64,000 bases of DNA from assembly GCA_035259575.1 (NCBI GenBank), contig DATFWE010000042.1, forward strand, positions 4,882-68,881, in the 5' to 3' direction. The number at the start of each line of letters is the position of its first letter. The stretch's first letter is position 1. Source of the DNA: Haliangiales bacterium (GTDB lineage: Bacteria > Myxococcota_A > Polyangia > Haliangiales > SHYZ01). Below are positions 1,759 to 40,639 of the stretch, piece by piece. The notes below the pieces were generated by a model, which was not told where the DNA came from, did no database searches, and worked only from the letters and a program-made list of their open reading frames with translations. The translations under genes were made by a program, and so were the position numbers.

Positions 1759-2840
1759 TCATGACGGCTTCACTCGATGAGGCGCTCGACCGCCTGCGCG
1801 GTGCCGGAGGCGAGATCGCCGGCGGCGGCATGCCGAATCACGGGCCCATGGCCGCCGAGGCGCTGGTCGCGCTCGGCCGCGGCGACGTCGTGGCGCGCTG
1901 GGCGGAACGGTACCGCACCGTGCTGGGCACCATGCCGGAGGCGAGCTCGGCGGTCACGATGGCGTCGTGGCGCGACGCACTCGGGGCGCCGCTCCGCTTC
2001 GGCGACTGGGCGGCGTTCTTCCGCGATCAGGTGGCGAAAAAAACCTGGCGGACCGTGCTCGCATCGTGGATCGGTCTCCTCGTGCCCGCGATGAATTCGG
2101 GCGGCACGCATGGGCTCATCCGAACCGCCCACGCGCTGCGCGCGCTCGAGGACGCGGAGACGCCGCTGCGGATCGAGGAGCTGGCGGTCGCGCTCGCGTT
2201 CTGGGCGGCTTACTACCGAGCATTCCCCACGCCGGCGCGGCTGTCCGGGACGCTCGGCTTCGCCGAAGCTCTCGCGCGGGTGCCCCGGCTCATGCGCGGT
2301 CGAGACCGTCGGGGCTTTCCGAGGGACCTCGCCCACGTGGCGGGGTCGGATCCGGACCTCGCGATCGCGGTGGATCGCGCCGCCCCACCCGAGTCCATCG
2401 AGCGCGCGCTCGGCGAGATCACCGAGGCCGGAGCCCGTCTGTACCTGGCCAACGCCGACCGCCAACCGCTCGTGCTGCTTCACATCGTCACCAGCGCGGC
2501 GGCCCTCCGGCTCCTTCTGCCGCATCTGTCGAGCGACCTCAGGCCCGTCGCGTTCGCCGGCCTGTGGCAGGCCGCGGCCGCGAACGCGGCCATGTTCAGC
2601 GACGAGCCGGCGCGCGACGGCGACGACCAGGGGTCGTTCTCCGAGCCGGAGATCATCGACCGATCGGTCGAGACGGAAGACCCGCACGCGATCAAGTTCG
2701 CCGAGGCATGCCTCCGCGAGCACCGGTTGCGCCCTCGACCCGTGTACCTCGCAGCCGCACGAGACTTCGCCGAACGGGCCCGCCGGGCGCGGGGCTGGAG
2801 CGAGGCGGAGCGCGTGGCCGCCGGGATGGAGTTTCCCTGA
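1755..2840 (+). CDS. Questin oxidase family (DUF4243-like) protein
   Basis: C-terminal part of track ORF 948..2840. ATGA overlap with the MFS stop; motifs NHGPMAAEAL, HGLIRTAH, LHIVTSAAALR, DPHAIKFAEAC. Confidence 0.7.
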   Translation: MIMTASLDEALDRLRGAGGEIAGGGMPNHGPMAAEALVALGRGDVVARWAERYRTVLGTMPEASSAVTMASWRDALGAPLRFGDWAAFFRDQVAKKTWRTVLASWIGLLVPAMNSGGTHGLIRTAHALRALEDAETPLRIEELAVALAFWAAYYRAFPTPARLSGTLGFAEALARVPRLMRGRDRRGFPRDLAHVAGSDPDLAIAVDRAAPPESIERALGEITEAGARLYLANADRQPLVLLHIVTSAAALRLLLPHLSSDLRPVAFAGLWQAAAANAAMFSDEPARDGDDQGSFSEPEIIDRSVETEDPHAIKFAEACLREHRLRPRPVYLAAARDFAERARRARGWSEAERVAAGMEFP

Positions 2841-2865
2841 CGCGAATCCGCGTTACGCTTTCCGC

Positions 2866-4050
2866 GTGCACCTCTCGGCCGCCGCGGCGCGGCGCTTCCT
2901 CGTCCGGCGCCACCTCCTCGCCCCGCCGCGATCGCTGCCCGCGCGGGCGCGCTCGGTGCTCGCCGTCGTCCGCGCGCTCGGATCGCTGCAGTTCGACCCG
3001 CTCGAGACCCCGGGCGCGCGCAACCACGAGCTGGTCCTCCACGCGCGCGTGGCCGGCTACCGCCGGGGCTGGTGCGAGCGCTGGCTCTACGGGCCCGATC
3101 GCCGCCTGTTCGAGGCCTACAACAAGTCGCTCAACATCCTTCCCGTCGAGGAGCTCCCCTACCACCGCATCAGCTTTTCGCGCGGCTGGCCGGGGTACGG
3201 CCAGCTCCTCGCCGGCCACACCGCCGAGACGGCGCGCATCCTCGCGACGATCGCCGAGCGCGGGCCGCTGCCGAGCTCGTACTTCTCCAGGGAGATCAAC
3301 CATACGCTGCCGGGCGGCTGGGGGCCGATGCGCGCCGGACGCCTGCTCGTCGAGGGACTGTTCGTGCACGGGCGCCTGGCGATCGCGCGCCGCGACGGGA
3401 ACACCCGCTTCTACGACCTGCCCGAGCGCGTCTATCCCGCCGAGCTCCTGGCGCGGCCGGTCGAGGACGGCGCGGCGCTGCGGCATCGCCTGCTCACGCG
3501 CTTCCGCGGCGTCGGGCTCCTCGGCGCGGGGGGCGCGGCCGAGGTGACGACCGGGACGGGGCCGGCCGCCGCGCGCCGGAAGGCCATCGAGGGGCTCGCC
3601 GCCGAGGGCGTCCTCGTGCCGGTCACCGTCGAGGGCGTGCGCGGCCCGCGCTGGATCCTCGCCGAGGAACGGCCGCTCCTCGATGCGGGCGCGGCAGGCG
3701 GCGCCGTCACGTTCCTCGGGCCGCTCGATCCGTTCCTGTGGGATCGCCGCCTCGTGCGCGAGCTCTTCGGCTTCGACTACACCTGGGAGGTCTACACGCC
3801 GGCGAAGAAGCGCAAGCACGGCTACTACGTCTTGCCGATCCTCTTCGGCGACCGGCTGGTGGGGCGGATCGAGCCGCGCCTCGACCGGGAGGCCGAGACG
3901 CTGGCGATCGCCGGCCTGTGGCACGAGGCCTCGTTCCGGCCGACGCGCCGCTACCGCGCGGCGTTCGACGACGCGCTGGAGGCCTACCGCGCGTTCGTCG
4001 GTGCCGACGAGGTCGTCCGCTCCAGGCTCAGTGATGGTGCGCGGCCATGA
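2866..4050 (+). CDS. YcaQ/AlkZ-like DNA glycosylase (winged-helix) family protein
   Basis: GTG 2866 start (MHLSAAAARRFLVRRHLL); motifs LQFDPL, NHELVLHARV and LGPLDPFLWDRR..LFGFDYTWEVYTPAKKRKHGYYVLPIL. Confidence 0.85.
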   Translation: MHLSAAAARRFLVRRHLLAPPRSLPARARSVLAVVRALGSLQFDPLETPGARNHELVLHARVAGYRRGWCERWLYGPDRRLFEAYNKSLNILPVEELPYHRISFSRGWPGYGQLLAGHTAETARILATIAERGPLPSSYFSREINHTLPGGWGPMRAGRLLVEGLFVHGRLAIARRDGNTRFYDLPERVYPAELLARPVEDGAALRHRLLTRFRGVGLLGAGGAAEVTTGTGPAAARRKAIEGLAAEGVLVPVTVEGVRGPRWILAEERPLLDAGAAGGAVTFLGPLDPFLWDRRLVRELFGFDYTWEVYTPAKKRKHGYYVLPILFGDRLVGRIEPRLDREAETLAIAGLWHEASFRPTRRYRAAFDDALEAYRAFVGADEVVRSRLSDGARP

Positions 4051-37868: not shown

Positions 37869-37886
37869 TTGGGCGACACTGGGACG

Positions 37887-40139
37887 GTGATCGCCGCCGC
37901 CACGCTCGACGAGCTGGTGCGCCTCCGTGGGGCCGAGACCCCCGCCGCCGATGTGCTGCGCTTCGAGGGCCAAGCCCTCCGCGCCGCGGAGCTCGACGAG
38001 CGCTGCCGGCGCACCGCCCGCGCCCTCGCCGATGCCGGCATCGGGCCGGGCGATCGGGTACTCCTCTACCTGCCCAATGGAATCGACGTCATGGTGGCCT
38101 GGTTGGGGATCGTGCGGCGCGGCGCGATCGTGGTCCCGGCGCATGCGACGCTGCGCGAGCGCGATCTGGGGCACCTGCTCGCCGTCTCCGGGGCGAAGCT
38201 CGCGCTCACCGACGCGGCCGGCGCGCCGGCGATCGCCCGGGCCGGCGCGCCCGGCGACGTGTGGATCGACCTCGGCCCGGCGCGGACGGCCCCCGCCCAC
38301 GGCGGCGAGACGCCCGCCGCGCCCGACGACGTGGTCGCGCTCCAGTACACGTCGGGCACGACCGGCCTGCCCAAGGGCTGCATGCTCACGCACGCCTACT
38401 GGCTCGCGCTCGTCGGGGCGATGGCGGCCTATGCGCCGTTCGGACCGGACGACGTGGCGCTGTCCGCGCAGCCGGCCAGCTACATGGACCCGATGTGGAA
38501 TCTGTTCCTCGGTCTCGCGACGGGCATGCCTCTGGCGCTGCTGCCGCGCTTCTCCGCGACGACGTTCTGGCGCAGCGCCGTCGCCACGCGCGCCACGTTC
38601 TTCTACTGCCTCGGCACGATGCCCCTCGTCCTGGCCAGGCAGCCGATCGACCCCGCGATCGAGCGCGGGCACCGACTGCGGTTCGTCCTGTGCTCGGGGA
38701 TCCCGGCGGCGCGGCACGCGGAGCTGGAGGCGCGCTACGGCTGTCCCTGGCGCGAGGCCTACGGGACGACCGAGCTGGGGGCGGTGCTGCTCTCGCCCCT
38801 CGCCGCCGTCGACGACGTGGGGACCGGGGCCCTCGGCGAGCCGTGCGCGGGCAAGGAGATCCGCGTCGTGCGCGACGACGGCGCCGCGGCCGGGCCCGGC
38901 GACTCCGGCGAGCTGCAGGTGCGCGGCCCGGCCCTCATGCGCGGGTACTTCGACGACGCGGAGGCCACCGCCGCGTGGTGCCCCGACGGCTGGGCGCGCA
39001 CCGGCGATGAGGTTGCCCTCGACGCGCGCGGGCGGCCGCGCCACGTCGGGCGGCGGCGCGACCTCATCCGGCGCGGCGGCCAGAACATCGCCGCGGCCGA
39101 GGTCGAAGCGGTCCTGGCCGAGCATCCGGCGGTGCGGCAGGTCGCCTGCGTCCCCGTCCCCGACGAGATCCGCGGGGAGGAGGTCAAGGCCTACGTGGTG
39201 CCGGCGGCGCCCGGCGCGGTGTCGCCCGAGGCGCTGGTGGAGCACGTGCGCGAGCGGCTGGCGCCGTTCAAGGCGCCGCGGTACGTCGAGATCGTCGCGA
39301 CGCTGCCGATGACGCCGTCGGAGCGCGTGGCCAAGCGCCTCCTCGCGCGCGCGGTCGGCCCGCGGACCTACGACGCGGACGAGCCCGTCGCCATGCGCGA
39401 GCTCACCCGCCTGGTCGCGCGCGCCGATTGGGTCGGCCTCGACGAGATGCTCGAGCTCGAGACCGACGCGGTGCTGGCGTGCCTCGCCGACCCCCAGCTC
39501 GAGCGGCGCGTGCGGGCGCGCGTGGGCGATCGCGCCCCCGACCCCTCGCCCGGCCCCGACGTGCGCGTCGCGCGCGCCGGCCGGCTCGCGACCATCACGC
39601 TGGACCGCCCCCACGTGGCCAACGCCCTGCGCCACGCGAGCCTGCGCGAGCTCCTCGCGATCCTCGACGCGCTGGCCGCCGACGACTCGGTGGACGCGGC
39701 GGTCGTCACCGGCGCCGGCCGCGCCTTCTCCGCCGGGGAGGACCTGCGCGAGCTCGTCGCCGGCCTGCCCGGCTCGGCCGCCGCGGCGCTGCCGCTGGCG
39801 CAGGACCTCACCCGCCGCATCGTGGCGCACCCGAAGCGCATCGTCGCCGCGGTGAATGGGCCCGCGGTGGGGCTGGGCGCCGAGCTCGCCCTCGCCTGCC
39901 ACGCGCTGGTCGCGGCGCGCGGCGCGTTCCTCAGCTTCCCCGAGGCGGAGATCGGGCTCCTGCCCACGAACGGGGCTTTCCACTTCGTGCCGCGACGGGC
40001 CGGCCCGGCGCTGGCGCTCGCGTGGTTCCGCGGCGGTGCCCCCATCCCCGTCGAGGAAGCGGCGGCCGCCGGCCTGGTGGCGCGGGTCGTTCCGCCCCAC
40101 GAGCTCGCCGCGGTCGCGGCCGCCGTGGCGCTCGGCTGA
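37887..40139 (+). CDS. CaiC-like acyl-CoA ligase fused to an enoyl-CoA hydratase/isomerase domain
   Basis: YTSGTTGLPKG, YGTTE, RTGD and RGGQNI (ligase); ITLDRP..NAL, FSAGEDL, AVNGPAVGLGAEL and FPEAEIGL (crotonase). Track start is TTG 37869. Confidence 0.88.
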   Translation: MIAAATLDELVRLRGAETPAADVLRFEGQALRAAELDERCRRTARALADAGIGPGDRVLLYLPNGIDVMVAWLGIVRRGAIVVPAHATLRERDLGHLLAVSGAKLALTDAAGAPAIARAGAPGDVWIDLGPARTAPAHGGETPAAPDDVVALQYTSGTTGLPKGCMLTHAYWLALVGAMAAYAPFGPDDVALSAQPASYMDPMWNLFLGLATGMPLALLPRFSATTFWRSAVATRATFFYCLGTMPLVLARQPIDPAIERGHRLRFVLCSGIPAARHAELEARYGCPWREAYGTTELGAVLLSPLAAVDDVGTGALGEPCAGKEIRVVRDDGAAAGPGDSGELQVRGPALMRGYFDDAEATAAWCPDGWARTGDEVALDARGRPRHVGRRRDLIRRGGQNIAAAEVEAVLAEHPAVRQVACVPVPDEIRGEEVKAYVVPAAPGAVSPEALVEHVRERLAPFKAPRYVEIVATLPMTPSERVAKRLLARAVGPRTYDADEPVAMRELTRLVARADWVGLDEMLELETDAVLACLADPQLERRVRARVGDRAPDPSPGPDVRVARAGRLATITLDRPHVANALRHASLRELLAILDALAADDSVDAAVVTGAGRAFSAGEDLRELVAGLPGSAAAALPLAQDLTRRIVAHPKRIVAAVNGPAVGLGAELALACHALVAARGAFLSFPEAEIGLLPTNGAFHFVPRRAGPALALAWFRGGAPIPVEEAAAAGLVARVVPPHELAAVAAAVALG

Positions 40140-40147
40140 AGATACAG

Positions 40148-40176
40148 TTGTACTTCCAGTATAACGATCGTATCCT
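40148..40176 (+). promoter_or_regulatory. sigma70-type promoter with an overlapping imperfect inverted repeat
   Basis: TTGTAC-N17-TATCCT; inverted repeat GTTGTAC-TTCCA-GTATAAC flanked by GATAC and GTATC. Confidence 0.55.
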
Positions 40177-40183
40177 CACGAGC

Positions 40184-40639
40184 ATGCAATGGGTGACGCG
40201 TCGGCACATCCGGGTGAACCGGACCGCCACAGCCTGGCTCGTCAGGCGCTTCATCGACCCCGGGGCGAGCTTCGTCTTCTGCGGCGCCGAGGAAGTGGCG
40301 GCCGTCGAGGCGCAAGGCGCGATCGGTTTCGACGCGCCCGGCGCGCGCTATCCGCACCGCGACGACCGGGGCCGCTGCTCGTTCGAGGCGCTCGTCGACG
40401 AGCATTGCGCGGGCGACGACGCGCTGCGCCGCATGGCGCGGATCGTCCACGGCGCCGACTTTCGCGACGCCGCCGCCGCGCCGCCGGAGTCGGCCGGACT
40501 GCGCGCGATCTCGCACGGCTTCCCCCTCGTCGCCGCCGGCGACGACGAGACGGTCGAGCGCGCCGGCTTTCTCTACGACGCCCTGTACGCCGCGCTGGCC
40601 GAGGCGTCGCGCCCTACCCCGACCAGAACGAGCACTTGA
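40184..40639 (+). CDS. ChrB C-terminal-domain (chromate resistance family) protein
   Basis: MQWVTRRHIRVNRTATAWLVRRFIDP..FDAPGARYPH..CSFEAL..IVHGAD; frame of track ORF 39428..40639. Confidence 0.85.
   Translation: MQWVTRRHIRVNRTATAWLVRRFIDPGASFVFCGAEEVAAVEAQGAIGFDAPGARYPHRDDRGRCSFEALVDEHCAGDDALRRMARIVHGADFRDAAAAPPESAGLRAISHGFPLVAAGDDETVERAGFLYDALYAALAEASRPTPTRTST

Follow-up and report, generated by a model that had tools for sequence, protein, structure and literature searches.

Within a 64,000-nucleotide stretch of the genome of a Haliangiales bacterium (assembly GCA_035259575.1, a 363-contig draft; contig DATFWE010000042.1, positions 4,882 to 68,881), referred to here as the window, the plus-strand gene at 37869..40139 encodes a fusion of an acyl-CoA ligase with a crotonase, as read from the list of open reading frames (ORFs) and its translation. 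Counted from the TTG at 37869, the product has 756 amino acids (aa); PVAMREL begins at residue 506 (nucleotide 39384), VVPPHELAAVAAAVALG is the end of the protein at residue 756, and a TGA stop occupies 40137-40139. The real start is probably the GTG at 37887 rather than this TTG, because the orthologues P0002 and P0158 have their first residue (MIAA/MIDA) where the window protein has Val7 and because GGGA lies upstream of the GTG; a start there would give a product of 750 aa, beginning MIAAATLDEL.

In our judgement this gene is likely to encode a two-enzyme polypeptide: an ATP-dependent acyl-CoA ligase (residues 1-503) continues directly into a circularly permuted crotonase, whose tail helices (506-558) are placed in front of its core (564-756). 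A circular permutation within a CoA-ligase fusion had been proposed in a first-pass annotation made from the sequence alone. The peptides and coordinates quoted there are exact, the peptides all lying in the +1 frame, and the proposal itself is supported by the complementary profile coverage of the two crotonase segments, as set out below.

The displaced helices and the spiral core

When the window protein (P0001) is compared with a 262-position profile of canonical crotonases, residues 499-558 match positions 199-258 and residues 564-754 match positions 5-198. The related proteins P0002 and P0159 have identical coverage, the two stretches again being complementary and without overlap. The cut falls in a loop at the surface, after the last core helix and before the first tail helix (profile 198|199), and the core ends at position 198, just where tail helices normally follow, as the annotation had said. 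A trimerisation subdomain C-terminal to the core is absent, and the helices homologous to it are found N-terminal to the core. Un-permuting the protein, by placing the linker after the core, gives a construct of which residues 2-252 align with 5-256 of P0016, without a gap across the artificial joint; against P0020 there is a 2-residue gap at the joint, and a single alignment spans it in 118 of the 153 relatives.

The displaced C-terminal helical subdomain, recognised by a tail-specific hidden Markov model (HMM) and by AlphaFold2 (AF2), comprises residues 506-558 (39384..39542, plus strand) and is the stretch that the annotation had called a linker, a name which we retain; three helices are predicted within it, at 507-518, 524-539 and 544-552. 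Against the tail HMM, which was built from the last 64 residues of 114 canonical relatives, the linker scores 39.4 bits (E 1e-11); none of 300 composition-preserving shuffles exceeds 7.1 bits (mean 0.6, sd 1.5), the reversed linker scores 0.2 bits, and 44 windows taken from the ligase give no more than 5.3 bits. Judged by this similarity in sequence, which is far beyond chance, the linker is homologous to the C-terminal helices of canonical crotonases, as its noted resemblance to them had suggested.

The same relation emerges from individual proteins. A search with residues 491-756 against 1.84 billion representative proteins gave some 150 best hits, many of them with two matched stretches; in about 50 of 156 relatives, which are canonical crotonases of 260 aa, the linker (~499-558) matches the relative's own last ~55 residues in a constant register, the alignments stopping a few residues short of the C-terminus. 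The best single match is to P0020 (24.5 bits, gapless), in which LEAMLQYEVDGMLACMASEDIEEGLRAFAEKRAP is aligned with LDEMLELETDAVLACLADPQLERRVRARVGDRAP of the window protein. The constant register and the tail HMM score together answer the doubt, voiced with the original proposal, that the linker might fail to align with the C-terminus of an enoyl-CoA hydratase (ECH). Because the relatives used for the profile were picked with a query that itself contained the linker, two relatives found by other routes matter as independent checks: the ECH-A protein of locus L097 (described below) matches the linker with 36% identity over 59 aa (E 1e-7), and the ECH of Microtetraspora fusca with 34% identity over 50 aa (E 2e-6).

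The crotonase spiral core (residues 564-756; 39558..40136, plus strand) is recognised by Pfam ECH_1, by the canonical HMM and by Foldseek. Residues 573-751 match positions 6-184 of the 251 in ECH_1 (E 4e-37), with about 65 C-terminal positions missing; the canonical HMM scores the core at 221 bits, and the crotonase models of NCBIfam likewise end at about position 195 of 260. The core closes with the helix HELAAVAAAVALG, and no trimerisation helices come after it. The core is of the beta-beta-alpha spiral type, and its oxyanion-hole loops, AFSAGED at 39723-39743 and GLGAEL, are present. The catalytic residues Glu672 (in GLGAEL, 39882) and Glu692 (in FPEAEIG, 39942) align with Glu residues of PaaF (4fzw_A) and are kept in P0002, P0159, P0009 and P0278; they are the equivalents of rat Glu144 and Glu164 of the hydratase subclass. 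The view that both catalytic Glu positions are intact thus stands, but the catalytic residue of PEAEIG is the first (PE) Glu and not the second, which is Gln in the orthologues. Close by, at ACHA (39894-39905, residues 676-679), the Asp of the 'acD(l/i)r' motif is replaced by His in all five permuted proteins known to us; it is Gln in the L097 ECH-B protein, and the Asp is kept in canonical relatives.

Between helices and core runs a short proline-rich connector (the DPSPGPD region, residues 559-564; 39543..39560, plus strand), which bridges the former C-terminus (..DRAP) and the former N-terminus (DVRVARAG..) and is similar in length to the head-to-tail junction of two canonical copies. A single-chain AF2 run on residues 491-756, with 122 aligned sequences, gave a mean predicted local distance difference test score (pLDDT) of 90.8 and a predicted template modelling score (pTM) of 0.89, the prediction treating the module as one compact unit. 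In this model the first 10 residues are disordered and are followed by three helices, the connector as coil (pLDDT ~76) and the core; the helices are 12, 16 and 9 residues long, which are the canonical lengths for crotonase tails, and have pLDDT values of 77-97. Foldseek superposes the core on many crotonases in the PDB, with a root-mean-square deviation of 1.3-2 Å and 31-37% identity over ~192 columns; being a sequential aligner, it is blind to permutation, and only these core columns were aligned.

The ligase and the proposed two-step enzyme

The N-terminal part of the protein is an ANL adenylate-forming enzyme. Its N-terminal domain (residues 21-361; 37929..38951, plus strand) matches Pfam AMP-binding with an E value of 8.8e-67 and carries the P-loop-like motif YTSGTTGLPKG at 38346-38378. 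Its C-terminal subdomain (39099..39377, plus strand) consists of a match to AMP-binding_C (residues 411-484, E 1.1e-19) and of a family tail ending in PRTYDA (498-503). The nearest solved structure is that of the oxalate-CoA ligase 5ie0 (E 1e-58). The alignment to NCBIfam PRK06155 reaches residue 504, and the tail motif ending in PRTYDA is also present in the stand-alone ligases of four related loci (L003, L095, L096 and L097). By these alignments the ligase extends to residue 503, and the crotonase helices therefore begin at about 504-506. Ligase and ECH domains are the only ones that Pfam finds in the fusion; there is no reductase, so the trifunctional layout of the propionyl-CoA synthase type is not present.

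We propose that the ligase would make an acyl-CoA, which the crotonase would then hydrate or dehydrate, or on which it would perform related alpha-proton (enolate) chemistry. The helices would pack on a spiral core, either their own or that of a neighbouring subunit, as in ordinary crotonases, to give a disc-shaped trimer that carries three ligases around its edge. The helices, although N-terminal, would keep their usual trimerisation and lid role, with the ligase tethered beside the crotonase entrance. That the protein is a functional, natural permuted crotonase whose relatives record a real evolutionary path, and in which the N-terminal lid helices allowed tethering of the ligase to produce a trimeric substrate-channelling machine, is a fuller proposal that we offer tentatively, considering it a little less probable than its contrary.

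A graded series of relatives and the alternatives

The search for homologues of the same domain order yielded P0002 and P0159, which share both this order and the end point of the window protein. P0002 (762 aa, 85% identical) was recovered from two sequencing runs, in a different gene neighbourhood; P0159 is a partial sequence, ~80% identical, from a JGI metagenome and likewise has different neighbouring genes. Compared with its orthologue in L001, the window gene has a ratio of non-synonymous to synonymous substitution (dN/dS, or omega) of 0.18 in the ligase, 0.20 in the helices and 0.28 in the core; by this measure all parts of the protein are under purifying selection.

Judged by gene neighbourhood, the relatives and the window form a graded series of four stages, in which the percentages quoted for ligases are the identity of each locus's ligase to that of the window. 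The first is a canonical cassette, represented by L095, with a ligase (48%) and a 266-aa ECH, and by L104 of M. fusca, with a TetR regulator, a ligase (51%), a 262-aa ECH and an amino-acid permease. The second is a duplicated and decayed pair, seen in three samples (L097, L098 and L099): in L097 a TetR gene and a ligase (54%) are accompanied, at 2593-3909, by ECH-A (219 aa) and, 6 nucleotides further on, ECH-B (216 aa, P0012). ECH-A covers profile positions 90-261; its N-terminal half is eroded and its first catalytic Glu lost, but the tail helices have been well preserved. ECH-B, at positions 1-199, is a full core without helices. The two probably form a 'split' crotonase of two chains.

The third stage is a fused partial duplicate, comprising P0278 (347 aa; profile 101-253, at 42 bits, followed by 5-199) and P0009 (336 aa; 118-256 followed by 6-198). 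In both cases the two copies make up a single gene, whose start overlaps the stop of a ligase gene; these ligases share 69-70% identity with that of the window. The copy-A remnant of P0009 scores 12.5 bits by itself, against no more than 5.0 bits for 300 shuffles, and the AF2 model of it is of low confidence (pLDDT 34-51). In the fourth stage, the form found in the window, neither the copy-A remnant nor the final ~8 ligase codons survive, and helix 1 follows the ligase without a break. A maximum-likelihood tree, built from 69 crotonase cores, places the five permuted cores in one clade (100/100), which divides into the stage 3 and stage 4 groups; the stage 2 ECH-B (P0012) is sister to this clade, with support of 91/65.

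Swapped segments of complementary coverage, together with relatives that carry tandem or partial-duplicate copies, are what permutation by duplication leaves behind, and both are found here. We suggest that the ancestor was a cassette of ligase and canonical ECH, in which the ECH gene would have duplicated. Copy A would then have lost catalysis and its N-terminal half, keeping its helices, and copy B would have lost its helices; the two copies would have fused; and an in-frame deletion of about 100 codons would finally have dropped the rest of the core of A, joining the ligase to the helices.

The proposed origin of the helices in a second copy also lends itself to a different reading, namely that the core is a C-terminally truncated crotonase which works or fails without trimerisation helices, and that the helices are the vestige of a lost upstream copy, now an inert spacer between ligase and core. 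In favour of this, the graded series does trace the helices to a distinct copy that has decayed (ECH-A), the last helix lacks the conserved EG..AF.EKR motif, and helix-less crotonase-like ORFs of 200-225 aa do exist alone (P0018); yet purifying selection on the helices (omega 0.20) matches in strength that acting on the ligase, and at 55% module identity the helices are still recognisable in P0009 and P0278, where the adjacent copy-A remnant has decayed. Moreover, AF2 sets helices and core confidently in one rigid unit (pTM 0.89, pLDDT up to 97), and the remnant has been deleted exactly to the first helix, leaving a complete set of crotonase segments. On this evidence we consider an inert spacer unlikely, and prefer a permuted crotonase that uses its helices.

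A second concern is that the layout is artefactual, a normal C-terminus having been lost to a frameshift, to mis-assembly or to recent pseudogenisation; the genome is, after all, a 363-contig draft, and an error-laden copy of the gene, P0003, exists in another data source. However, no crotonase tail was found in the three frames after the stop, either in the window or at two related loci (best score 0.9 bits), which disposes of the suggestion that a frameshift after 40139 might restore one. The end point and order also recur in independent assemblies with differing downstream genes, and dN/dS is well under 1 throughout, making an artefact of this kind very improbable. P0003 itself (460 aa) is a near-identical copy of the window's ligase and helices, with nonsense near both helix ends, and probably stems from an assembly of poorer quality, made from the same organism or one very close to it.

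Finally, the idea that the linker's likeness arose by convergence or from composition (its amphipathic helices being rich in Ala, Leu and Arg, in a genome of 75% GC), for which its want of a Pfam ECH_1 score and its ECH_2 match of only E 0.18 might be cited, is scarcely credible beside the shuffled, reversed and other helical controls reported above, the constant gapless register that ends at the targets' C-termini, and intermediates such as P0278 (42 bits) in which the helices are contiguous with a recognisable second half of the core.

Several observations do weigh against a permuted, two-enzyme protein. Of the two segments that the annotation had wanted aligned to ECH_1, only the core matches (6-184 of 251); the linker has no ECH_1 score, and even on the un-permuted construct the match stops at position 186 and does not reach into it, while the linker alone finds only the ECH_2 model. 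Sequence comparison indicates that Pfam is too insensitive for a displaced tail, and that the signal requires a profile of close relatives; such profiles were therefore used instead. The last tail helix is altered, with RRVRARVGDR where canonical enzymes have the conserved EG..AF.EKR motif, and may pack differently from the canonical one; and the canonical position of the helices in three dimensions is something that we only infer, from a predicted model. In the ligase, Arg486 (in PSERVAK; 39321-39335, residues 485-489) holds the position of the usual catalytic Lys of motif A10, the residues SERV pairing with SGKI of 5ie0, so that of the ANL hallmarks the two Pfam domains and the P-loop-like motif are present and the A10 Lys is not. 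This replacement is family-wide, canonical cassettes included: PMTPSER[VI]AK is present in every cassette-family ligase (L003, L095, L096, L097 and L104). The direction of the series would follow from parsimony, from graded identity and from a sister relation supported at only 91/65.

The small number of proteins with the permuted order, only about five sequences, also counts against the proposal. Searches of 60 related genomes, of 400 from the same phylum and of 100 related to the P0278 genome found no junction-spanning match. When 185,579 species genomes were scanned by pattern, no true junction-spanning relative emerged, the only spanning matches being adjacent separate genes, and a pattern scan of metagenomes gave no confirmed one; full-text literature searches returned, within the library searched, no description of a permuted crotonase.

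Some candidates that surfaced along the way were set aside. The spanning hits in Bathyarchaeota come from pairs of full-length canonical ECH genes, 3 nucleotides apart, and are not permutations. In L016 (3401-4972, from a Bathyarchaeota metagenome-assembled genome; also in L017, L024, L029, L036 and L091) the pair stands behind a 3-hydroxyacyl-CoA dehydrogenase gene, and tblastn merges pairs of this type into one junction-spanning match, a trap for searches of this sort. The spanning hit in M. fusca is a canonical ECH whose frame overlaps the 3′ end of the ligase gene. The truncated crotonases P0214 and P0018 were not counted, since their contexts (a paa cluster and a contig edge) are unrelated.

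Downstream of the fusion gene, the stop codon and an AT-richer intergenic spacer (40137..40185, plus strand) are followed by an unrelated gene, which starts at ATG 40186. This ORF (40186-40639, plus strand, 150 aa, beginning MQWVTRRHIRVNRTATAWLVRRFIDPG) has no Pfam match at E <= 1; it may resemble ChrB-C-like chromate-resistance domains. The neighbours in the window are genes for Usp, hemerythrin, a protein of unknown function and DUF5916; they are not conserved beside the orthologues and yielded no clue to a substrate. Elsewhere, the cassette relatives at L096 (645-8522) and L104 (369-4885) stand beside a TetR regulator and amino-acid permeases, L096 also having a class I/II aminotransferase and an S15 (CocE/NonD-type) peptidase. 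The recurrence of TetR, permeases, aminotransferase and S15 peptidase in related loci hints that the substrate could be an acid derived from imported amino acids.

Known systems and what the proposed permutation may mean

Crotonases have a canonical two-domain architecture, in which C-terminal helices have a trimerisation and lid role (PMC5834635). With such enzymes (E. coli PaaF 4fzw_A, M. tuberculosis EchA8 and rat ECH 1dub) the module of the window shares the spiral core, both catalytic Glu residues and three homologous helices. In contrast to them, its helices are N-terminal to the core, the two are joined by a 6-residue connector, and a ligase stands in front; the 'acD' Asp has become His (ACHA) and the EG..AF.EKR end motif is lost.

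Other close counterparts are the cassettes of TetR, PRK06155-like ligase and canonical ECH in L104 and L095, which have an orthologous ligase (48-51% identity) and the closest canonical ECH cores (45-47%). They differ in that their genes are separate and their ECH (262-266 aa) is in the normal order; they presumably carry out the same two-step chemistry as the fusion.

A second comparison is with propionyl-CoA synthase (Pcs) of the 3-hydroxypropionate bi-cycle, reportedly described by Bernhardsgruetter and co-workers in 2018 (a study cited in PMC11599936) as a fusion of ligase, dehydratase and reductase. Here too an acyl-CoA ligase is N-terminal to a crotonase-type dehydratase, and a CoA ester passes between fused active sites. 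Pcs differs in having a third (reductase) domain, and it is not a close relative in sequence, being absent among the best 60 PDB matches; it is not known to be permuted.

Permutation by duplication is known in other folds, such as saposin/swaposin and the DNA methyltransferases, where tandem duplication is followed by fusion and by loss of the outer ends. The crotonase resembles these cases in its swapped segments, and partial-duplicate intermediates exist for it (P0278 and P0009). It is unlike them in that separate, complementarily decayed genes (ECH-A and ECH-B) precede the fusion, and in that the final deletion fuses a third enzyme, the ligase, to the product.

Natural circular permutations whose intermediates survive are rare, and instructive for the study of protein evolution. 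Each of the steps proposed here (duplication, complementary decay into a donor of helices and a catalytic core, fusion, trimming and fusion with a partner enzyme) has an extant sequence, so that the pathway could be reconstructed and put to experimental test. It would seem that a crotonase can take its trimerisation and lid helices from the other end of the chain and, at stage 2, probably in trans from a second polypeptide. This is relevant both to the engineering of crotonases and to their annotation, as standard Pfam scans call such proteins truncated ECH and miss the helices. The fusion and its relatives also define an unstudied ligase-plus-hydratase cassette, which is often accompanied by a TetR regulator and amino-acid permeases.

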